From Malacoraja senta (Eukaryota): a DNA stretch of 64,000 nt. The translations under genes and the position numbers were made by a program. A model generated the notes under the pieces. The model was not told where the DNA came from, did not search any database, and saw only the letters and a list, made by a program, of their open reading frames with translations. Of the stretch, positions 1 to 58,888 are shown piece after piece. Each line of letters begins with the position of its first letter. Position 1 is the first letter of the stretch. The DNA lies in contig CM075992.1 of assembly GCA_038087875.1 (NCBI GenBank), forward strand, positions 8,930,001 through 8,994,000. Direction: 5' to 3'.

Positions 1-913
1 GCCTGTTTCCGTGCTGTGTTTCTAAACTAAAGTAGGGAAAAAATATCACTTCAGTTGGGCACATTCTAGAGAGACTGGGTACTTGGTTCATTTAAAAAAA
101 AAGAACTTATTAGTGGACTAAGAGTTTGTTAGCCGGAATGATGATAGCACTTGATTTAAGGATTAAGATTTGGCCTGAGGATTGATGAAAATCTCTCTGG
201 ATTGACCACACATTTAGCCCTGTTGAGTGAATGGCACTTGCTGACATCAAGATTTCCATTGTGATAAAGCCAGTTCCACAGTTCATTAAAGCACGAGGGA
301 GACACAAAACCTGATGGCGTTAACGATTAGACAATGGACAAGCTTTGAACACAGGAAATCACAGATCTAATCACTGAAAGTGTTATGATTTATAAATACC
401 CCAAGTAAATCACACATCTGACCCTGAACAGCTGTGAACAAGACACCATCAGTTCCTGTACCATTATTCAACTGTAAATTACAGTAACAATTTCTCCTCA
501 GAAGCATCAATTTGCTGACCATTTGTAGCAGAAATGACCAAATATTGATCAGGAGAACAGTTCTTTGACAATTAAAACGGACACCTCCAGATTCAGGGAC
601 AGTTTTTTGCCAGCTGTGATCAGGCAACTGATCCATCCTATCACCAACTGGAGAGCAGTCCTGAACTACTGTCTACCTCAATTAGAGACCCTCGGACAAT
701 CTTTAATCGGACTTTACTGGGCCTTATCTTCCACTAAATGTTATTCACATTTTATTCCCTTTTATAATGTATCTGTACACTGTGGATGGGTCGAGTGTGT
801 GGGAAGAACTGCAGATGCTGGTTTACACCGAAGATAGTCACAAAATGCAGGAGTAACTCAGCGGGTCAGGCAGCATCATTGTAATCTTGTATTGTCTTTC
901 CGCTGACTGGTTA

Positions 914-1205
914 AGGCCCTGTCCCACTTTCCCGAGTTACTCACGAATTCTCCCCTTGATTCAAACTCGGAGATGCCAGCCGTAGGTACTCGGGACTATT
1001 TTTTTTACTCGTGGACATTTTTCAACATGCTGAAAAAACCGTCCCGACTTACCTGATGCCCCGAGTACCTACGGCTGGCATTACGAGCCGCTACGAAATA
1101 TCTACGGACTCCTACGGACTCGCTACGGACATTCTCCGAGTTTGAAGAATCGAGGGGAAAACTTGGGAGAATTCGTGAGTAACTCGGGAAAATGGGACAG
1201 GGCCT
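914..1205. mobile_element. PIF/Harbinger-type MITE, subfamily A
   Basis: TIR AGGCCCTGTCCCA extending to about 40 bp; TTA TSD (911-913 and 1206-1208). Confidence 0.85.
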
Positions 1206-15202: not shown

Positions 15203-15308
15203 CCCTCTTTCTCAAGAATGACCTTCCGTTCATAATCCTTTAGGTACATTGGCTTTTCCTTTTTCTTTTTGTTTGCAGTTTTCCCCTTGCTGCCTTCATT
15301 TCCAACAT
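15203..15308 (-). CDS. KRI1: KRI1 coding exon 4 (DVGNEGSKGKTANKKKKEKPMYLKDYERKVILEKEG)
   Basis: aatAG/GTAAGT boundaries; 106 nt; phase 1 in, 2 out; conserved PMYLKDYERKVILEK. Confidence 0.95.
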
Positions 15309-16725: not shown

Positions 16726-16766
16726 TATGATATTCAGAGGTTGGACGGACAATAGACAATAGGTGC

Positions 16767-16909
16767 TTCTTCTTCTTCTTGCGTACGGCGTGCACAGCCT
16801 AAAGTTGTAGGACAACTTGTTCTATTAGATCTTATTTGATTGTGCACGCCAGGTTGATTGCATTTGTCGAAACAGGGCGGACCACGTGAAGGTTGCAATC
16901 TCCCACCCC
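16767..16909 (-). mobile_element. Short retroposon with 5' HDV-like ribozyme and (GAA)n tail, copy 1
   Basis: 13-bp TSD agacaataggtgc (16754-16766 and 16910-16922); related copies at 48318-48450 and 53389-53527. Confidence 0.85.
16856..16909 (-). ncRNA. Minimal HDV-like self-cleaving ribozyme (54 nt)
   Basis: P1 GGGGUGG/CCGCCCU with G1-U wobble; P2 GAUUGCA/UGCAAUC; P3 ACC/GGU; L3 UUCACGU; short UUCG-capped P4; J4/2 CAAA. Confidence 0.8.
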
Positions 16910-17498
16910 AGACAATAGGTGCAGGAGTAGGCCATTCGGCCCTTCGAGCCAGCAGCGCCATTCAATGTGATCATTGCTGATCATCCCCAATCAGACCGGC
17001 GGAGGGTACCGGAGGTCGGTCAGAATGGCGGAGGGTGCTGGACGTCGGACCTGCAGCTCAGGGAACAAAGGGAGACCTGGTGTGAGGGTCCGCCGAGAAT
17101 GAAGGGGGACTAAACGGAATACTTTGTAACTTTGTCGGTGCCCTATATGTGCCGATTATTTATATACCTTGTGTAAGTAAAACTAAGAATGGCACTGTGA
17201 CATGTCACTGCAGTACTAGGGAAGTGCTAGAACTAGAACTTTCAGATGAGATGTCAAACAAGGTTCCTCGAAGGACTCATAACATGTAGGGGAACTAATT
17301 GATAGGAATGCAGAAAGAAAAAAATAGATTACATGGAAAATTAGTGAGGAAATTGCATTGTTCTGTGAACCGGCATAAACTCGATGGGCTGAAATGGTCT
17401 TCTTTTATATCGTAAGGAAAAATAGTCAGGAAGGGATATGGCTATGGGGTTGAAAAAGAGATTGGTGCACTCGTGGACTGTGAGCCTATGTTAATTAG

Positions 17499-17772: not shown

Positions 17773-17913
<141 letters not shown>

Positions 17914-34956: not shown

Positions 34957-35331
34957 TCAGTGCAGGGACGGGGTTCCCATTGCTTGCAAGTGCTCCTCCA
35001 ACCACTCCACCACCTCAGTTCTACCGCAAGCCCTAGCCACGTCCAGCGGGGTCTGCCCACTGAAGTTCTTGTGCCAGACGCACGACTTCGGAGCCAGGAA
35101 CTGAACGAGGCCGAGGTGTCCTTCTTGAGCGGCGAGGTGGATCGGCAGACAGCCCGAACCATCCTCCAATTTCATGTTTGAGTTGTACTCAACCAGGACC
35201 ATCATGGTGTCCAGGAAGCCCGCACGGGCCACATCGTGCGCTGGGGTGAAGCCATTCTTATCCTGGATGTTGGGGTCCGCCCCATTCTTCAGCAGCTCCT
35301 CAGCCACGAGGCTGCAACCCATCATCATCAC
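34957..35331 (-). CDS. CDKN2D: p19INK4d coding exon 2 (VMMMGCSLVAEELLKNGADPNIQD...GTPSLH*)
   Basis: cccctcAG acceptor; ankyrin repeats with HDVARAGFLDT and LPIHLAAQEGH. ELLK.GA.PN.QD, VLVE and DG.G.LPIHLA.QEGH are closer to p19 than p18, and KRI1 is adjacent as in human. Total 170 aa. Confidence 0.93.
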   Translation of the reverse strand: MMMMGCSLVAEELLKNGADPNIQDKNGFTPAHDVARAGFLDTMMVLVEYNSNMKLEDGSGCLPIHLAAQEGHLGLVQFLAPKSCVWHKNFSGQTPLDVARACGRTEVVEWLEEHLQAMGTPSLH

Positions 35332-36453
35332 CTGAGGGGAGACAGACACGAGATTAGGATGCCGTGCTTCGGTTTAGCAATTTTATTTTGTACCACATCA
35401 GATTGCGTCACAGTCCTTGCACCAGTCTGCTGGTTTACATTCAGCGTTGTAAATATTATACCAGTACCACTTGTACTGTTGCCGTTCGGTCTGCAACGCC
35501 TGTGCTGAGGCCCGAGCAGGGTTCAAGGATGTGCGAAGAAACTGGAACATCAGGGGAGAAACCCACGCAGTTCATGCAAACTCCACGCAGGCAGCACCCG
35601 AGGTCAGGTCTAAACCAGAGTCCCTGGTAGCGGTGCCAACAGCCACTCGGTTACCGAGTTTACATTATTTCAGTCAATAGAGAGACCAGTTCAGTTTAGT
35701 TTATTGTCACGTGTACCGAGGTACAGTGAAAAGCTTTTTGTTGTGTGCCAACCAGTCAGCAGAAAGACAATACATGATTACAATCGAGTCATTTACAGTG
35801 TACAGATACATAAGGGAATAATGTTTAGTGCAAAGTCCGATCGAGGATAGTCCGAGGGTCATCAAAGAGGTAGATATGGATGATGTTTTGCATCCTATCC
35901 AAACACATCACTCCAAAGATATACAGGTTTGTAGGCCAATTGGCTTGGTATTTAAATATAAAATTGTCCCTAGTGTGTAGGATAGTGTTAATGTGCAAGG
36001 ATCGCTGATCGATGCAAACTCAGTGGGCCAAAGAGCCTGCTTCTGTGCTGTATCTCTAAGATCAGATAATACCTATATGACTTAATTAATGCACGAGACT
36101 AATATATATATAGGTCTGAAGATGGTTCCCAACCCGACAACGTCACCCACCTTTTTTCTCCAGAGGTGCTGCCTGACCCGCTGAATTACTCCAGCACCCT
36201 GTGTCTATCTTCAGATAATACTATACATCAATACAATTGAGGCAAACACGTTCAATAGGGGAAGATACAGAGTGCAAGATATAGTTCTCAGCATTGTAGC
36301 GCATCAGTTCCACAGACAAAGTCCATGTCCGCTACGGGGTAGAGGTGAATCGGACAGTACCCTAGCTTATGGAAGAACTGCTAGGAAGCCTGATAACAGA
36401 GGGGAAGAAGCTGTACCCGAGTCTAGTGTGCGTGCTTTCAATCTTCTGCCTGA

Positions 36454-43200: not shown

Positions 43201-44543
43201 CTCAGTCTAAAGAAGGGGTTCGGCCCGAAACGTTGCCTATTTCCTTCGCTCCATAGATGCTGCTGCACCCGCTGAGTTTCTCCAGCATTTTTGTCTACCC
43301 TCTTACTACAACTCTGCCTATAGTATATTTTAGCAAGTTATCCCTCTGAAAGACACTCGTTCTCAATCTGTTCTCAAGTTAGACACAAAACCCTGGAGTA
43401 ACTCAGCGGGCCAGACGGCATCCCTGGAGAGAAGGAATAGGTGACGTTTCGGATCCATCTTCGGTTTAAGCCAGCATCTGCAGTCTGAAGAAGGGTCTCG
43501 ACCCGAAACGGCGCCCAATTCTTCCCTCCCGAGATGCCGCCTGTCCCGCTGAGTTACTCCAGCATTTTGCGTCTATGGGCAGTTCCTTCCTACACATTGT
43601 GCGCTTGTTCTCATGAAACGTGAAGTACAATGCTTTAAAACCACCTCCACATCTTCAATCTTAATTCCAGATTTAATGACCTGTTACGATTCTAAAAATC
43701 TAGAACTTGTCACTTTTGAATTAAAGAATCAATTATAATGGGCGCGGAGCAACACTGTGGCGTAACCCCAAAATAATGACACAAGAGCTCGCACCGGGGT
43801 TTCGTTTCAAATTATTTTACAACTACTGCGGCGATAGTAGTGTATTTTTTTAAATTCCAGGAACTAGTCGATCGCTCACTGAAGATGAATGCCAACACCC
43901 GCCCACCATCCGCCCGATTCAGACTCCGCCCTTTCAATAGTAATGTGTCACTGATGTATTTCACAATGATGGTGCCTTTTAAATCTTTTTAAAAAAAATC
44001 TAACAGCCGGATCTCTCGGCTGCGTCTCTTGTTCCACGAATCTCATCCACCCTGGCAACTCTGAAAAAAAACACGTCTGTTTTAAAAGGCCGAGCGAGTT
44101 TCCAAATTGGAATTGCGGTCCCAAAGCGAGCCGGGAGGCAGTTTCATTCACAAAATGTTACGATACATTGGGGGGTTACAAATTTTAAAAAAATGCGCCC
44201 AAACCTTCGCCTGTTTACCCGCCGCCTTTTCACACACATACACACAGAGCCAGAGGTTAATGTTCCCGAGCAGGTTTACACGGACATATCAGAGGCGTTG
44301 ACAGCTCAAATACACTCAAGTAAATACATCGGCAGTTATTAATTAAGCAGGAACGTAATTTTCTTAAGAGCTTTAAATTCAACAAATCTCCGGAATACAA
44401 TAAAACAATTATACGATTAGAAAGAGGAAAATTGCAGATTCTTTTTTTTTGTGCAAATGCGAAATTCATAATTACTTTCCCACAGCCCGGGATAATCTGC
44501 AAAGACTATACATTGATGTGACTTATTTTGAGGCGGCACCAAC

Positions 44544-44681
44544 CTGCAGTGCGGTATGTCCGTATTTATTAACCGCATTGACATTCACCTTCTCTTCGTT
44601 CAGAAGACGTTTCACCTCTCGCCAGTTGCCTTGCACCGCAGCCCTGCTCAGCTTGTTGCCGCCGGACATGCTTTTGACCAT
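44544..44681 (-). CDS. CDKN2D: Cyclin-dependent kinase inhibitor 2D (p19INK4d), coding exon 1 (MVKSMSGGNKLSRAAVQGNWREVKRLLNEEKVNVNAVNKYGHTALQ)
   Basis: ATG in good Kozak context (agcATGG); first ankyrin repeat of the INK4 family; intron after TALQ as in INK4 genes; GTTGGT donor; 138 nt, phase 0. Confidence 0.92.
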
Positions 44682-44814
44682 GCTGCTGTTTGCTTTGCCC
44701 CCGCTCTCTCCCTTGCACAGAGCCGGAGGAGAGTGTGGGTGTGAGCGGGGGGAGAGAGAGACAGAGAGAGAGTGGGGATAGAGAGCAGCAGCCGCAGCCT
44801 CGGCTCTGCTCGGC

Positions 44815-45000
44815 CAACCTTTCCCGGAAGCGCTGGGCGACTGAGTGACAGCGCGCCGCCCAATCCCCGCGCCGCGCGGCCGCCGTCGCCCCTGGCAACG
44901 CGTGAAATGGATACACGGCATTCGGAGGCCCGGCCGCGGACCAATCAGAGCGCGGCGCCGGCGCCAATGGCAACAATGCCGCCTGACGTCATGTGTTTTT
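44815..45000 (-). promoter_or_regulatory. CDKN2D CpG-island promoter motif cluster
   Basis: CCAAT at 44860, 44941 and 44964; STAT GAS TTCCCGGAA 44821-44829; CRE TGACGTCA 44984-44991; X-box-like GTCGCCcctGGCAAC 44885-44899; very CpG-rich. Confidence 0.7.
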
Positions 45001-45042
45001 GTTACTTCCCCCCCCCCCCCCGGACTCAGGCGCGGGGACTCC

Positions 45043-46000
45043 CCTGTCCGCCCTAAACAGCTGAACACTGAGCCGGGGCAAGGAGCGTCTGTCCGCCCTG
45101 AACACGGAGTCTGAGCAAGGAGCGTCTGTCCGCCCTGAACACGGAGCCTGGAGCCGGGGCAAGGAGCGTCTGTCCGCCCTAAACAGCTGAACACGGAGCC
45201 TGGAGCCGGGGCAAGGAGCGTCTGTCCGCCCTGAACACGGAGCCTGGAGCCGGGGCAAGGAGCGTCTGTCCGCCCTGAACACAGAGCCTGGAGCCGGGGC
45301 AAGGAGCGTCTGTCCGCCCTGAACACGGAGCCTGGAGCCGGGGCAAGGAGCGTCTGTCCGCCCTGAACACGGAGCCTGGAGCCGGGGCAAGGAGCGTCTA
45401 TCCGCCCTGAACACAGAGCCTGGAGCCGGGGCAAGGAGCGTCTGTCCGCCCTGAACACGGAGCCTGGAGCCGGGGCAAGGAGCGTCTGTCCGCCCTGAAC
45501 ACGGAGCCTGGAGCCGGGGCAAGGAGCGTCTGTCCGCCCTGAACACAGAGCCTGGAGCCGGGGCAAGGAGCGTCTGTCCGCCCTGAACACGGAGCCTGGA
45601 GCCGGGGCAAGGAGCGTCTGTCCGCCCTGAACACGGAGCCTGGAGCCGGGGCAAGGAGCGTCTGTCCGCCCTGAACACAGAGCCTGGAGCCGGGGCAAGG
45701 AGCGTCTGTCCGCCCTGAACAGCTGAACACTGAGCCGGAGCAAGGAGCGTCTGTCCGCCCTGAACACGGAGTCTGAGCAAGGAGCGTCTGTCCGCCCTGA
45801 ACACGGAGCCTGGAGCCGGGGCAAGGCGCGTCTGTCCGCCCTAAACAGATGAACACGGAGCCGGGGCAAGGAGCGTCTGTCCGCCCTGAACACGGAGTCT
45901 GAGCAAGGAGCGTCTGTCCGCCCTGAACACGGAGTCTGGAGCCGGAGCAAGGAGCGTCTGTCCGCCCTGAACACGGAGTCTGAACAAGGAGCGTCTGATC
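45043..46000. repeat. GC-rich 44-bp minisatellite, about 22 units, degenerating to ~46380
   Basis: Unit GAGCCTGGAGCCGGGGCAAGGAGCGTCTGTCCGCCCTGAACAC(G/A). Confidence 0.95.
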
Positions 46001-48317
46001 GTCCTCAGCCCGGAGCCTGGAGCCGGAGCCTGGACAACGGGGCCCCAGTCCGCTTTCTAGCCCGGAGCTGGAACCGCGGAGCCTGTTCCCGGAGCTGGAG
46101 TCCCTGTCCGCCCTGAACACCGACCTGGAGCCGGAGCAAGGAGCGTCTGGCCGCCCTGAACACAGACCTGGAGCCGGAGCCGTCAGCTGGAACACGGAGG
46201 CTGGAGCTTGGAGCCTGGACGCTGGACCCAGAGCGAGAAGCCCCCTGTCCGCCTGGAGCGCGGAGCCCGCGTCCGCCATGAACACAGCCTGTTGCCTGGA
46301 CATGGAGCCCCTGTCCGCTCGGAGCCTGCAGCTGAACCCGGAGCAAGGAGCCTCTGGCCGCGCTGAGCCGGAGCCCGTGTCCACCCTCATCACTGAGCCT
46401 GGGCGTGCAGTATCAAAATAAACTCAATCCTTCTGCGGTGCAGGTGCCGCAAGCTCTCTGTAACTCCCATTTGTTTTTTATTACTGAGGACACAAACAGC
46501 TGCAGATTTGATAATCTGAAGTAAAACCATTAGCCAATAGTGTTTTATTATTATGTCCCGAAAGGGATCAATAAAAGTCTTACGCGCAGCAGCACGACAC
46601 ATGTAAACATTGCACTCCATAGACATCATAATAAACGACACAAAGTTTAATATATGTAAACAAATAAACAATATAGTCCAAAGACAAAAACAATGTCCCC
46701 ATGTCATGATCGCCGGATCTGCCTGACCTGTTAAATTACTCCGGCAGTTTGTGTTTTGATGAACCTCAGCTGGTAAGGGAGACAAATCGTCTGTCCATTC
46801 CCCCAGAGACGCTGCCTGACCCAACAAATTCCCCCGGCACTTTAGAACCTCTGATTCATATAGCTCACGGAAACAGGCCATTCGGCCTAACTCGTCCCTG
46901 CTGACCAAGTTGCTCCATTTAAGATAGTCGGTATTTTGCCTGCCTGCCTCTGAAGTTCACTTGGAAACGACAAAAGGCTTCGGGACGCTCGATCGCGGGG
47001 CCTCTGTTGTTCGCTCCAGGCTCAGCCCCGAATCAAACTTTGTTCGCTTAAGCTACATACAAAGTGCTGGAGTAACGCAGCGGGTCAGGCGTTATCTCTG
47101 GAGAAAAAAGGCTGGCTGATGATTCGGGTCGGGACCTTTCTTCAAGGACTTCTTGAGAAGAGAGGTCCCGACTAGAAACGTCACCTATCCATGTTCTCCA
47201 GTTATGCTACTTGATCCCTGAGTTACTCCAGCGCTTTGTGTTTATTTTAGGTATAAACCAGCATCTGCGGTTCCTTGTTTTTACATATAAAAACGTAGAA
47301 AATAGGTGCTTCGAGCCAGCACCGCCATTCAATATGGTCATGGCTGATCATCCACAATCAGTACCCCGTTCCTGCTTTCTCCCCATATCCCTTGATTCTG
47401 TTAGCCCCAAGATCTATATCGGACTCTCTCTTGAAAACATCCAGTGAATTGGCCTCCACTGCCTTCTGTGGCAGAGAATTCCACAGAGAACTCTCTGGGT
47501 GGAAAGGTTTTTCCTCATCTCAGTTCTAAATGGCCTACCCCTTATTCTTAAACTGTGACCCCTGGTTCTGGACTCCCCCAACATCGGGGACATTGTTAGT
47601 TTAAGGCTAGAACTGCGTCGTGGACAGCATAAAGAGGCTGAAGGAGGGTCCTGACCCGAGATGTCTCGTGTCCATTCCTTCCACAGATGCTGCCTGGCCT
47701 GCTGAGTTCGCCCAGCACGTTGTGCTTAACTCATAATAATCGATATGTTCCGTTTATATTGCCCCCTTCAACGCAGCGAAGGGTATGTGTCCCCGACACG
47801 TTTTACAGGAGAGTTTTTTAACTGGATGGTCATAAGATCATGTGATAGTAGAATTAGGTCATTCGGCCCATCAAGTCTACTCCGCCATTCGATCATGCCT
47901 GATCTATCTCTCCCTCCTAACCCCATTCTCCTGTCTTCCCCCATAACCTCTGACACACATTCTAATCAAGAATCTATCTATCTCTGCCTTAAATATATCC
48001 ATTGACTTTGCCTCCACAGCCTTCTGTGGCAAATAATTCTACTGAGGCTATGACTGAGTGGCCGGTGAAAGCCTGAGATGCCAGAGCCTCTTCCTGCCCA
48101 TGGACAATGAGGAACTGTGCCCACACACACACAAAGGCAAAGACTGAGCTACCACGATCAGTTCAGTTTAGTACAGACACAGTGAAAAGCTAAACGTGTT
48201 GTCACGTTTGCAAAATAAAATCGCGACTATTTGCAAACCATGACCCATATTTTTTTACACAAAAAAGGTCAGCGGGTCAGACAGGAACTACAGAGAAAAG
48301 AAATAGGTGACGTTTCG

Positions 48318-48450
48318 GGGGTGGAAGGTTGCAACCTTCACGTAGCCTCGACGAATGCAATCAACCTGCTGGCGTGCACAAACAGAAGATCAAACAGAAC
48401 AAGTTGTCTTACAACTTTAGGCTGTGCACGCCATACGCACGAAGAAGAAG
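48318..48450 (+). mobile_element. Short retroposon copy 2, ribozyme internally deleted
   Basis: Homologous to 16767-16909 but lacks the 3' strands of P3 and P1; inserted in a Penelope-derived repeat. Confidence 0.75.
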
Positions 48451-48545
48451 ACCCTTCTTCAGACTGAAAGTCAGCTCCCACCACCCCCCCCCTGAAGAAT
48501 CTGAAGTTCCTCCCACCCTTTTTTTACGTAAGCATTATTTTTACA

Positions 48546-51935: not shown

Positions 51936-53388
51936 GTTCCAACACATTCCATCTGCTTAACCCCTTCCCAGGACTGGGTTCCAAACGGAACGCCTGTTTT
52001 GGGATTCTGATGCCAGGGAATGTCCACGACTCGATCTTCCCAAAGTAGCTGAAATATTGGTTTCTTTAACTTCAAGTAACCTCTGCATTCCCTCTCTCTC
52101 CATCCCCCCCCACCCAAGTCGTACCAGCTTCAAAGTCGTCTTGTTGAGTCTCATTGTCTGTAACTCGTTCCCGCCTAGCAATCAGCTAACAAACAATGGC
52201 CTGATTCCTATATCATCGTTACTTTTTGCCATTCACTTGTTCTAAATCGCTCCACATCACCGCCTACATCTCTTGTTTCCCTTTCCCCTGACTCCCAGTC
52301 TGAAGAAGGGTCTCGACCCGAAAAGTCACCTAGTCCTTCTCTCCAGAGATGCTGCCTGAGTTACTCCAGCTTGTTGTGTCTATCCGTCAGACTGAGATTC
52401 ACTAATGCACCCAGAGCAGGTGGAGGGCTTTGTGGAGACTGCGTTGGCGACATCCCACCAGCAGTGTCACTGTCGGCAGCCAATGTTTTTGCTACACTCT
52501 GTAGCTAAAGTTCCAAACCACTGTTGATTCCCACTCTCCTAAAATTTGAGATCAAGAGGCTTCAGCCCAATCTTTCCCTCCCCATTTGGCAAACCGCCCT
52601 CCCAGGATCTTCCCATTGTCCATCTGGCAAATCATCTTCCCAGGAATCTCCATCTCTGGTCTTCATTCCTGAAGATCCAGGAATCTTCACCCACCCCATC
52701 CATGGCAAGGACATGATCCACTCTTCAGGTAGCGAGGCCTGTATTTTAGCTGTGGTCTTGTCAAGACCCTCTTTGACTGCGATAATGTTGCAGTAATATA
52801 AGACATTGATGAGGCCGCGATTAGAGTATTGTGTTCACTTCTGGGCGCCATGTTATGGGAAAGGTGTTGTCAACCTGGAAAGGGTGCAGAGAAGATTTAC
52901 GAGGATGTTGCCAGGACTCAGGTGCCTGAGCTATAGGGAAAGGTTGCGGATGCTCGGATGCTATTCCTTGAAGCCCAAGAGGAGGAGGGGTGATCTTATA
53001 GAGGTGTACAAAATCATGAGAGGAATAGATGGGGTAGACTCGGAGAGTTTCTTGCCCAGAGTAGAGCCGCTACCTCACAATTTGAGGCTCGAGTTCGACC
53101 TCGAGTGCTGTCTATGTTAGGTTTGTACGTTCTCCCCGTGACCGTTTGGGTTTTCTCCAGTTTCTTCCCACATCCCAAAGACGTGCGGGTTTGTAGGTTA
53201 ATCGGTCCTCCGTAAAATTGCTCCTCGGGGCTAGGGAGTGCGTAAGAGAGACAGATAACACAGAACTGGTATGAACGGGTGATAAGACATAGGAGAAGAA
53301 TTGTACCATTCGGCCCATCTAATCTACTCCGCCATTCAATCGTGGTTGATCTGATTTTACCCGATCAATGGTCGGCATGAACTAAACT

Positions 53389-53527
53389 TATTTTTCTTGC
53401 GTGTGGCGTGCACAGCCTAAAGTTGTAGGACAACTTGTTCTATTTGATCTTATTTGATTGTACACGCCAGGTTGATTGCATTCGTCGAAACAGGGCGGAC
53501 CACATGAAGGTTGCAATCTTCCACCCC
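53389..53527 (-). mobile_element. Short retroposon with intact HDV-like ribozyme (53474-53527), copy 3
   Basis: Same fold with J4/2 CGAA; degenerate 12-bp TSD (53377-53388 and 53528-53539). Confidence 0.8.
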
Positions 53528-55509: not shown

Positions 55510-58500
55510 ATGACATAGGCAGAAAAAGAGAAGAGGTCCTGAAAGGAGAATTTAGGGAGTTGGGAGGAGAGTTAAGGAGAAGGTCTGCAAAGGTAACAAT
55601 CTCAGGATTACTGCCTGTGCCACACGACAGTGAGAGCAGGAATGAAATGAGGTGGAGGATAAATGCGTGGCTGAGGAACTGGTGCAGCGGGCAGGGATTC
55701 AAATTTCTGGATCATTGGGACCTCTTTTGGGGAAGGTGTGACCTGTACAGAAAGGACGGGTTGCACTTGAACCCGAGGGGGACCAATATCCTGGCGGGGA
55801 GATTTGCAAAGGCTACTGGGGAGACTTTAAACTAGAATGGTTGGGGGGAGGGACTCAAATAGAGAAAGATGGTAGAAAATGTTGGAGGCAGGAGGCAGAG
55901 AAGGGAAGCACTCGGACCCAAAATGTAGGGGAGTAAGAAGAAAAAGATAATAAACAGAGAATAAGTGGTGGTGGGTTTCTTAAATGTGTCTATTTTAATG
56001 CTAGGAGCATTGTAAGAAAGGTGGATGAGCTTAGAGTCTGGATTGACACCTGGAAGTATGATGTTGTGGCGATCAGTGAAACATGGTTGCAGGAGGGCTG
56101 TGATTGGAAACTAAATATTCCAGGATTCCATTGCTTCAGGGGTGATAGAATTGGAGGGGCAAGAGGTGGGGGTGTTGCATTGCTTGTCAAGGAAGATATT
56201 ACAGCAGTGCTTTGGCAGGATAGATTAGAGGGCTCGTTTAGGGAGGCTATTTGGGTGGAGCTGAGAAATGGGAAAGGTGTAGCAACACTTATAGGGGTGT
56301 ATTATAGATCGCCAAATGGGGAGCGAGAATTGGAAGTGCAAATATGTAAGGAGATAGCAGATATTAGTAGTAAGCACAAGGTAGTGATTGTGGGAGATTT
56401 CAATTTTCCACACATAGACTGGGAAACACATTCTGTAAAAGGGCTGGATGGTTTGGAGTTTGTAAAATGTGTGCAGGATAGTTTTTTGCAGCAATACATA
56501 GAGGTGCCTACTAGAGAAGGGGCAGTGCTGAACCTCCTGTTAGGAAATGAGACAGGGCAGGTGGCGGAGGTAAGCGTTGGGGAGCACTTCGGGTCCAGTG
56601 ATCACAATACCATTAGTTTCAATATAATTATGGAGAGGGTCAGAACTGGACCTAGGGTTGAGATTTTTGATTGGAGAAAGGCTAACTTTGAGGAGATGCG
56701 AAAGGATTTAAAAGGAGTGAATTGGGACATGTTGTTTTATGGGAAGGATGTAGAAGAGAAATGGAGGACATTTAAAGGTGAAATTTTAAGAGTACAGAAT
56801 CTTTATGTCCCTATTCGGTTGAAAGGAAATAGTAAAAATTGGAAAGAGCCATGGTTTTCAAGAGAAATTGGACACGGTTCGGAAAAAGAGAGAGATCTAC
56901 AATAATTATAGGCAGCATGGAGTAAATGAGGTGCTTGAGGAGTATAAAGAATGTAAAAAGAATATTAAGAAAGAAATTAGAAAAACTAAAAGAAGATATG
57001 AGGTTGCTTTGGCAAGTAAGGTGAAAGTAAATCCAAAGGGTTTCTACAGCTATATTAATAGCAAAAGGATAACAAGGAATAAAATTGGTCCATTAGAGAA
57101 TCAGAGTGGACAGCTATCTGCAGAGCCAAAAGAGATGGGGGAGATACTGAACAATTTCTTTTCTTCAGTATTCACCAAGGAGAAGGATATGGAATTATGT
57201 GAGGTATGGGAAACAAGCAGAGTAGCAATGGAAACTGTGAGATTCAAAGAAGAGGAGGTGCGGACACTTTTGAAAAATATGAAAACGGATAAGTCTCCAG
57301 GTCCTGACAGGATATTCCCGAGGACATTGAGGGAAGTTAGTGTAGAAATAGCAGGGGCTATGACAGAAATATTTCAAATGTCATTAGAAACGGGAATAGT
57401 GCCGGAGGATTGGCGTACTGCGCATGTTGTTCCGTTGTTTAAAAAGGGTTCTAAGAGTAAACCTAGCAATTATAGACCTGTTAGTTTGACGTCAGTGGTG
57501 GGCAAATTAATGGAAAGGATACTTAAAGATAATATATATAAACATCTGGATAAGCAGGGCCTGATTAGGAACAGTCAACATGGATTTGTGCCTGGAAGGT
57601 CATGTTTGACTAATCTTCTAGAATTTTTCGAAGAGGTTACTAGGGAAATTGATGAGGGTAAAGCAGTGGATGTTGTCTATATGGACTTCAGTAAGGCCTT
57701 TGACAAGGTTCCTCATGGAAGGTTGGTTAAGAAGATTAAATTGTTGGGTATTAATGGTGGAGTAGCAAGATGGATTCAACAGTGGCTGAATGGGAGATGC
57801 CAGAGAGTAATGGTAGATGGCTGTTTGTCAGGTTGGAGGCCGGTGTCTAGTGGGGTGCCTCAGGGGTCTGTGTTGGGTCCACTGTTGTTTGTCATGTACA
57901 TCAATGATCTGGATGATGGTGTGTAAAATTGGATTAGTAAGTATGCAGATGATACTAAGATAGGTGGTGTGGTGGATAATGAAGTAGATTTTCAAAGTCT
58001 ACAGAAAGATTTAGGCCATTTGGAAGAGTGGGCTGAAAGATGGCAGATGGAGTTTAATGCTGATAAATGTGAGGTACTACATCTCGGCAGGACAAATCAA
58101 AATAGGACGTACATGGTAAAGGGTAGAGAATTGAGGAATGCAGTTGAACAGAGGGATCTAGGAATAACTGTGCATAGTTCCCTGAAGGTGGAATCTCATG
58201 TAGATAGGGTGGTAAAGAAAGCTTTTGGTGTGCTGGCCTTTATAAATCAGAGCATTGAATATAGAAGTTGGGATGTAATGTTAAAATTGTACAAGGCATT
58301 GGTGAGGCCAATTCTGGAGTATGGAGTACAATTTTGGTCGCCTAATTATAGGAAGGATGTCAACAAAATAGAGAGAGTACAGAGGAGATTTATTAGAATG
58401 TTGCCTGGGTTTCAGCAACTAAGTTACAGAGAAAGGTTGAACAAGTTAGGTCTTTATTCTTTGGAGCGCAGCAGGTTAAGAGGGGACTTGATAGAGGTCT

Positions 58501-58888
58501 TTAAAATTATGAGAGGGATAGACAGAGTGGACGTGGATAAGCTTTTCCCACTGAGAGTAGGGAAGATTCAAACAAGGGGACATGACTTGAGAATTAAGGG
58601 ACAGAAGTTTAGGGGTAACATGAGGGGGAACTTCTTTACTCAGAGAGTGGTAGCTGTGTGGAATGAGCTTCCAGTGGAAGTGGTGGAGGCTGGTTCGATT
58701 TTATCCTTTAAAAATAGATTGGATGGGTATATGGACGGGAAAGGAATGGAGGGTTATGGTCTGAGTGCAGGTAGATGGGACTAGGGGGAAGTATTTATTT
58801 AAAAAAATAAAAAAATAATAAAAAATGTTCGGCACGGACTTGAAGGGCCGAGATGGCCTGTTTCCGTGCTGTAATGGTTATATGGTTA
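55510..58888 (+). mobile_element. Near-full-length, 5'-truncated CR1-clade LINE (ORF1 esterase C-terminus plus ORF2 APE-RT), inactivated
   Basis: ORF1 ...DGLHLNPRG; endonuclease [30 protein letters not shown] and YADD (57942). In-frame stop at 55934 and frameshifts near 56875 and 57922. Confidence 0.95.

Follow-up and report, generated by a model that had tools for sequence, protein, structure and literature searches.

What kind of mobile element occupies positions 16,767 to 16,909 of a 64,000-nt stretch of Malacoraja senta contig CM075992.1 (hereafter the window), and what sets its 5′ end? The first-pass annotation of this DNA had described a promoter-less "ribozyme SINE" (short interspersed element) on the minus strand, headed by a minimal ribozyme like that of hepatitis delta virus (HDV) and mobilised by an Ingi/Vingi- or RTE-type LINE (long interspersed element). 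The minus strand from 16909 to 16767 does read as written there, and the evidence assembled below favours the view that this is a bipartite retroposon of Vingi type in which an HDV-like ribozyme head probably sets the 5′ end. The element is an internal-deletion derivative of one LINE, made of ~77 nt from its 5′ end and ~49 nt from its 3′ end. Base n of the element corresponds to window position 16910−n, with G1 at 16909. The element, its target-site duplication (TSD) and the parts of its head are as follows.

16767..16909, minus strand: whole non-autonomous retroposon, 143 nt, assigned by sequence and family comparison to the youngest subfamily (J4/2 = CAAA)
16910..16922, minus strand: 5′ copy of the TSD, 13 bp, closing with a T that occupies position −1 relative to the predicted cleavage site
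16754..16766, minus strand: 3′ copy of the TSD, 13 bp
16856..16909, minus strand: predicted P4-less HDV-like ribozyme fold, 54 nt, equivalent to the 5′ end of a Vingi-like LINE
16903..16909, minus strand: 5′ strand of P1, with the predicted cut between 16910 and 16909 (G1)
16894..16900, minus strand: 5′ strand of P2
16881..16893, minus strand: P3-L3-P3, with U20, C22, A23 and G25 numbered as in the CPEB3 ribozyme
16874..16880, minus strand: 3′ strand of P1; U36 pairs with G1, and the LINE and older subfamilies have A in place of G32
16867..16873, minus strand: G37-U38, the P1.1 partners of C22/U21, and a five-base remnant where P4 would be
16863..16866, minus strand: J4/2, with the candidate catalytic C44 at 16866 and a second base that is G, U or A by subfamily
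16856..16862, minus strand: 3′ strand of P2

In the head, P1 joins bases 1-7 to 30-36 with wobbles at G1·U36 and U5·G32, J1/2 comprises bases 8-9, P2 joins bases 10-16 to 48-54 through seven Watson-Crick pairs, and the 3-bp P3 (17-19 with 27-29) closes L3 (20-26, UUCACGU). P1 is followed by G37-U38, five further bases and J4/2 (C44-A-A-A); the P4 helix is absent, 7 nt separating P1 from C44. The hallmarks of HDV ribozymes found here are a P1 opened by G1·U, an outer pseudoknot of P2 and P3, an L3 carrying U20/G25 and C22, a single C22-G37 pair in P1.1 and a candidate catalytic C in a C-N-A-A J4/2, where N is G, U or A across subfamilies. Core numbering is identical to that of the CPEB3 ribozyme, for which G1·U36, U20·G25, C22, A23 and a P1.1 of one G-C pair plus U-U are described (PMC4836649). 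A generic HDV descriptor, composed from the general HDV architecture after the element had been seen, matched the two strands of the window only once (G1 = 16909, C = 16866) and matched neither 44.5 Mb of Markov sequence nor any of 399,929 shuffles of the head, and the P1, P2, P3, L3 and J4/2 C claimed by the first-pass annotation were recovered within bases 1-54. Nested folding scored the head no better than its shuffles (z −0.79), as is expected of a pseudoknot, and the minimum free energy structure of the majority head consisted of P1 and P3. Rfam gave a divided answer: the window copy, submitted within 1.7 kb, had no match at E ≤ 5, but the best-E match of a copy with CGAA in J4/2 was RF02682 (HDV-F-prausnitzii), placed on exactly the 54-nt head and below threshold (E 1.7; 14.4 bits, where the cut-off is 44). 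Judged from these sequence features, the head is very probably a minimal HDV-like ribozyme.

The element belongs to a large family. A 24-nt internal motif had at least 2,332 exact genomic matches (reversed control, 0), a figure that is a lower bound on family copy number. Seventy of the first 71 motif matches, less five duplicates, provided 65 distinct copies, in which positions 27-50 (except 32 and 45) are set by the search pattern and uninformative on conservation. Bases 1-7 were exact in 40 copies, differed by one mismatch in 16 and by two in 6, and were clipped in 3, which leaves 56 of 65 with at most one mismatch. TSDs were found in 55 of the 65 copies, 30 of them ending at G1, 15 overlapping G1 by one base, 5 leaving one extra base and 5 lying elsewhere; 34 of the 55 were 11-12 bp long. 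With 45 of 55 duplications at G1 or one base over it, and with the window element's own 13-bp duplication placing its start at G1, the uniform 5′ end anticipated at first pass is borne out for the family. The 65 copies had no common sequence upstream of G1 apart from T at −1 (34/65, p = 3e-5 against an assumed 28% T). The genomic HDV ribozyme is fastest with U at −1 (PMC1874588); the bias may simply be nuclease preference, because base −1 is supplied by the target.

Common variants in the head occurred only at tolerant sites, namely base 8 in J1/2, base 32 and base 45. The variant at base 32 converts U·G to U-A and keeps the pair, while base 45 gives CGAA, CUAA or CAAA, of which the G-U change is not CpG decay. 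Near-identical sequence was present in at least nine organisms (sequencing-run search: 20 rows, 14 studies, none recorded as RNA). The flanks of the 65 copies were unrelated to one another, indicating dispersed insertion and not the 28S rDNA site, and the family bears the marks of target-primed reverse transcription, with TSDs, a simple-repeat tail and dispersed copies. The family is young.

Behind the head, the element divides into the following parts.

16833..16855, minus strand: remainder of the LINE 5′ untranslated region (UTR), holding the 5′ strand (16850-16841) of an end-to-end stem
16816..16832, minus strand: short middle segment whose counterpart was not found in the LINE and which is missing in subfamily C; its last three bases open an inner hairpin (16818-16802)
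16781..16815, minus strand: LINE 3′-end part with the last codons, the stop codon (16801-16799) and 3′ UTR, identical to LINE copy L286 at 33/35 positions
16796-16787, minus strand: 3′ strand of the end-to-end stem, within the LINE 3′-end part
16767..16780, minus strand: (AAG)n tail, the same as in the LINE

The parent LINE was exposed by a 3′ exclusion pattern (55 matches, 30 read) through a single one of the 30 loci, L222, in which the element's last 40 bases sit behind the point where an open reading frame (ORF) ends; the flank of L222 was also seen as a loose end in the contigs of another organism. Two other exclusion patterns, one placed behind the head (28 matches) and one ahead of the stem (48 matches), returned deleted copies only, because the LINE has the same bases there. 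Among 465 candidates for the parent, 40 were scored and 14 fetched, and all 14 of these 3′ copies share the element's last 40-49 nt (codons, stop, UTR and tail) at 80-98% identity. Sixteen LINE copies reached the 5′ third. Twelve were fetched, three of which have a sense head ahead of the ORF, starting at base 2, 9 and 43, two have the head inverted at the 5′ junction and seven are truncated before it. The LINE head carries U5-A32 and CUAA, as does subfamily C, which consists of the LINE 5′ end plus the 3′ end without the middle segment. Element and LINE agree at 63/69 positions in the 5′ part and 33/35 in the 3′ part. We also noted L298, L306 and L311 as Vingi-like LINE copies with an inverted head at the 5′ junction, an arrangement expected of twin priming on full-length RNA.

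The LINE ORF directly follows the 5′ UTR, and its pieces encode an apurinic/apyrimidinic endonuclease (APE) and a reverse transcriptase (RT); ribonuclease H (RNase H) was not found in them. All 120 listed homologues of 170 contain the RT and none of these contains RNase H (PF00075), most of those listed being ~1000-aa APE+RT proteins on 3.1-3.7-kb contigs. The parent thereby fits the description of Vingi as a compact LINE with a single ORF for APE and RT and no RNase H (PMC13708176), and the element almost certainly derives from a LINE of this type. The retroposon is more numerous than its parent, and the TSDs of the few Vingi copies read are 11-13 bp long. The LINE sharing both ends that the first-pass annotation had wanted searched for is therefore at hand, which supports mobilisation by the Ingi/Vingi type; the term "ribozyme SINE" does not survive, since the head is the 5′ end of the LINE and the element an internal-deletion derivative of it.

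Several other origins were considered and rejected. Joining of a ribozyme to a LINE tail is ruled out by the head at the LINE's own 5′ end. A SINE in the strict sense would have a small-RNA head transcribed by RNA polymerase III (Pol III), and none was present (ARAGORN, 0 tRNAs in the element; Rfam, 0). In a DUF6451 search for an RTE parent (15 of 150 loci read), matches were confined to the tail or to a copy inserted separately, and an RNase H family search led to retroviral-type pol in the 10 loci read of 150, with longer stretches lacking the shared ends. Insertion away from the 28S rDNA site rejects R2 or R2/R1 SIDEs, a different head rejects LP-SINE membership, and location in a eukaryotic intron rather than a phage genome, with no adjoining tRNA, rejects a theta ribozyme. 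Nimb-like LINEs were rejected as the cognate parent on three families with no end identity, longer TSDs and heterogeneous 5′ ends. As a separate observation, loci L051-L060 hold several retroviral-type pol families of this genome, some with long open frames.

The two ends of the element also pair with each other. A 10-bp stem joins bases 60-69, from the LINE 5′ UTR, to bases 114-123, from the LINE 3′ UTR. The LINE has a shorter version of this stem, and the youngest subfamily a perfect one. The stem and inner hairpin noted at first pass do exist, but the stem is not a feature of the 3′ half as was thought, its strands coming from the two ends of the LINE. We compared 5′-3′ duplexes of 22-nt windows with body windows as controls. 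Controls that paired equally well or better numbered 0/416 for the window copy, 6/416 for its own LINE, 8/416 for a second family in this genome, and 7/556 and 11/556 for the distant LINE loci L334 and L335 (see below). End pairing ranked among the best 2% of control windows for 4/4 lineages tested, a result that is modest for each singly and mutually consistent. The RT would recognise the paired ends, which would account for the bipartite structure.

The same architecture was found in independent lineages. A looser descriptor run over 1.9 Mb of fetched loci gave one match outside the family, L025 (~450-643, minus strand), a second ribozyme-headed retroposon family of this genome, ~190 nt long, with an 11-bp TSD that stops at its G1, paired ends, a tail of (AAG)n and stems different from those of the window element; L024 is a duplicate of L025 and L009 a partial copy. 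Of 80 metagenome loci with Vingi-like ORFs, 18 reach the ORF start, and the descriptor matched two of these, L334 and L335, 205-230 nt upstream of the ORF (controls: no match in 17 kb of reverse strand or in the other 471 kb of sequence, and one in 697 kb after shuffling). The Rfam CPEB3 ribozyme model (RF00622, cut-off 35) matched L334 at 55.6 bits (E 1e-12) and L025 at 35.5 bits; L335, L315, L338, L319, L390, L305 and L308 had no Rfam ribozyme match, and among 14 further loci only L024 had one (28.4 bits, below cut-off). The stems of L025, L334 and L335 differ yet pair. The L334 match (972-1044, plus strand of a metagenome contig) is the 5′ end of a Vingi-like LINE that is full-length but broken, and is located at the 5′ target duplication. 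Compared with the Rfam CPEB3 consensus, it has the same base at 35 of the first 37 positions and at 10 of the last 11, stems included. Because stems are free to vary, as in the window element, this comparison of two sequences suggests that L334 and the CPEB3 ribozyme share descent, most simply by passage from a LINE to a mammalian intron. By eye, variant or clipped HDV-like heads, which were left uncounted, were also seen in L315 (~420-560, apparently with a long hairpin inserted in L3) and upstream of the ORF in L338, L350, L353, L354, L390 and L333.

These observations would fit the following cycle. A copy would be transcribed by read-through from a host RNA polymerase II (Pol II) unit, possibly aided by an internal promoter like Pr77; the predicted ribozyme would cut 5′ of G1 with C44 as general acid, leaving a uniform 5′ end. 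The strand just behind the ribozyme would pair with the strand just before the tail, yielding a single recognition structure from both ends and explaining why both are retained in derivatives. The LINE APE/RT protein would then start at the (AAG)n tail and copy the RNA in a target-primed reaction, and integration would leave an 11-13-bp duplication ending at G1. On sequence grounds, master elements are quite likely to be catalytically active; that cleavage sets the 5′ end in vivo is also the likelier case, if by a smaller measure.

A number of results weigh against this interpretation. In 798 poly(A) RNA-seq reads of a related organism, drawn from ~6% of one run, molecule starts did not pile up at G1 or anywhere, 253 reads had loose ends running upstream of G1, and coverage fell over bases 1-8 equally in both read directions (~0.89 and ~0.87). 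Head-bearing poly(A) RNAs are thus largely uncut at G1, and efficient cutting of host mRNAs was not seen, in a test blunted by unrecorded strandedness, by mostly decayed and often antisense copies, by fragmented libraries that miss 5′-OH ends and by loss of cut RNA. The element's own head falls under every Rfam cut-off, with models that carry the P4 absent here; L335 and the LINE heads L305 and L308 are likewise without a match, and 16 of the 18 distant loci fail the strict descriptor. Pairing of G37 with C44 around UUCG could sequester the catalytic C, and the changes G32/A32 and CGAA/CAAA are also of CpG type. As for the parent, the name Vingi was assigned from motifs and domain architecture rather than from a tree that includes named members; every LINE copy read is broken, none with an intact ORF, 0/3 sense-head copies begin cleanly at G1, and the LINE copies, ~75-95% alike, look older than the youngest retroposons. 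Finally, the windows of the end-pairing test were picked by hand.

The absence of cut ends from the RNA reads, together with a P4 reduced to five bases and a low Rfam score, is what might be seen if the head were an internal Pol II promoter starting at +1, like Pr77 or the proposed head of LP-SINEs, with an inherited HDV fold that is weak or dispensable and with uniform 5′ ends arising from initiation rather than cleavage. In the sister Ingi clade, Pr77 has been proven to be an internal promoter (PMC4035085), from which uniform 5′ ends are equally expected, and the "promoter-less" of the first-pass annotation is therefore unproven. Yet the catalytic core is kept at every position, both between subfamilies and between lineages that have wholly different stems, and 5′ junctions have no consistent extra G, a weak point owing to the G run. 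Promoter and ribozyme functions are moreover compatible, and we regard a promoter in place of a cleaving ribozyme as unlikely. It is barely credible that an ordinary LINE 5′ UTR should fit the HDV-like pattern by chance: the window element's head lacks an Rfam match at cut-off and the descriptor postdates its discovery, but the descriptor's silence in Markov sequence and shuffles, the coincidence of the fold start with the insertion boundary and the above-cut-off CPEB3-model matches of relatives at the same position all speak against it.

A further alternative concerns the machinery, in that recent copies may have been mobilised in trans by an intact Nimb-like LINE after the Vingi-like parent decayed. 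Nimb-like LINEs have the same (AAG)n tail and a GGC...GCC terminal stem, three families ending in a similar stem plus (AAG)n, and in one family ORF2, 1277 aa long, is intact in many copies that are 97-100% identical, while an intact Vingi ORF was not seen. Against this stand the lack of sequence identity at either end beyond the tail and a TSD length of 13-14 bp in 17 of 23 Nimb copies, compared, under slightly different scoring, with the 11-12 bp that prevail in the retroposon and the 11-13 bp of the Vingi copies. Mobilisation by Nimb is accordingly very improbable, and derivation from and mobilisation by a Vingi-type LINE is the reading that we retain. Near-full-length Nimb-like LINEs were seen to carry varied, partly nested and often G-starting 5′ extensions of up to ~110 nt between the TSD and the shared UTR, both in the family with many intact ORF2 copies (L043, L044, L045, L049, L247, L251, L253, L261 and L262) and in a second family (L266, L268, L270 and L274). 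These extensions look like serial 5′ transduction from host promoters.

The remaining features of the window that bear on the element are its host exons and two further copies.

17784..17889, minus strand: exon 3 of the host gene, which we take to be KRI1-like
15203..15308, minus strand: exon 4 of the same presumed KRI1-like gene
53387..53527, minus strand: second copy in the window, 93.6% identical, with L3 C24 changed to T
48318..48451, plus strand: third copy in the window, 82% identical, with an internal deletion in the head

On the minus strand, four exons that are in phase and have GT-AG junctions (20049-19965, 19037-18964, 17889-17784 and 15308-15203) make up the start of the host gene, and the element lies in sense orientation in intron 3. 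The sense placement in intron 3 given at first pass therefore stands, but the name KRI1 is our assumption from motifs only; exon 3 as a query gave 0 matches in PDB. An ankyrin-repeat exon at 34960-35373 (minus strand) matches Pfam Ank_2; we take it to be CDKN2D-like, which would fit synteny with KRI1. The element inserted at the 3′ end of a very abundant repeat (16910-16990 and 16754-16745), presumably a CR1-like tail. Elsewhere in the window are a long APE-RT LINE ORF in three open pieces at 55937-58781 (plus strand), which we assume to be CR1-like, and a GC-rich tandem repeat at 44526-46423 with long open frames on both strands.

Four LINE clades are stated to make bipartite derivatives, and Vingi alone among them is without a listed 5′ ribozyme (PMC5786205); a Vingi-type head with an HDV-like fold would be the missing case in that stated open question. 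In the literature searched, we found no Vingi ribozyme, vertebrate P4-less ribozyme, end-to-end pairing or Vingi source for CPEB3; Repbase, Dfam and patents, which may hold parts of this, lay outside its scope. PMC7761336 treats domestication in general terms, and the words "origin" and "transpos" do not occur in PMC8233481, on the CPEB3 ribozyme. Vingi-type LINEs might as a clade begin with active HDV-like ribozymes and paired ends, a general recipe for bipartite retroposons of which the window element would be a minimal form and the CPEB3 ribozyme a domesticated head; we put this forward tentatively, as somewhat less than an even chance. With CPEB3-like heads present on Vingi-type elements, the question of where a conserved mammalian ribozyme came from becomes directly testable, and this is the lead most worth following. 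The head offers a natural 54-nt candidate HDV-like ribozyme with three J4/2 variants, and the 143-nt element a minimal template for Vingi, whose UTRs serve in gene-insertion platforms (PMC13708176). With thousands of copies, some of them sense in introns, members of the family could cut pre-mRNAs as the CPEB3 ribozyme does.

Some metazoan LINEs and SINEs use HDV-like ribozymes, with many multicopy genomic examples (reviewed in PMC6765202). The CPEB3 ribozyme (RF00622; PMC4836649, PMC8233481, PMC10919898) resembles the window element's head in core numbering, L3, the single G-C pair of P1.1 and a sense position in an intron; it is described as single-copy, conserved for ~159 My and possessing P4, whereas the window element has different stems, inserted recently and shows no sign of exaptation. 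The minimal drz-Mtgn and theta ribozymes (PMC10879173) also lack the P4 helix at ~54 nt, but ~99% of them belong to Caudoviricetes phages and they are often tRNA-linked, whereas the present head sits on a vertebrate retroelement. Mollusc LP-SINEs (PMC4758252) likewise have a LINE-derived rather than a small-RNA head, which in Fig. S2 of that paper looks unrelated by eye. R2 SIDEs and R2/R1 hybrid SIDEs (PMC3414825) consist entirely of a ribozyme and a LINE 3′ end and are released from a co-transcript, but are confined to 28S rDNA and to the R2/R1 machinery, in contrast to a family dispersed genome-wide in thousands of copies. NARTc, RIME and SIDER of the trypanosomatid Ingi clade (PMC4035085), a sister clade, are dispersed short derivatives sharing with their LINE an HDV-like ribozyme head, L1TcRz/Pr77, and in trypanosomes the Pr77 head serves as promoter and ribozyme alike; here, the host is a vertebrate without polycistronic transcription and the predicted ribozyme head is a P4-less 54 nt. 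Bipartite non-autonomous derivatives of Vingi-1_EE have been described (PMC5786205) and similarly retain, through internal deletion, nothing but the two ends, 5′ and 3′, of an APE LINE that has a single ORF and lacks RNase H. The window element is thus of a kind already known, a bipartite non-autonomous LINE working like NARTc/RIME/SIDER and the SIDEs, in which, compared with the Vingi-1_EE derivatives, the Vingi-type head has an HDV-like fold and the two ends pair.
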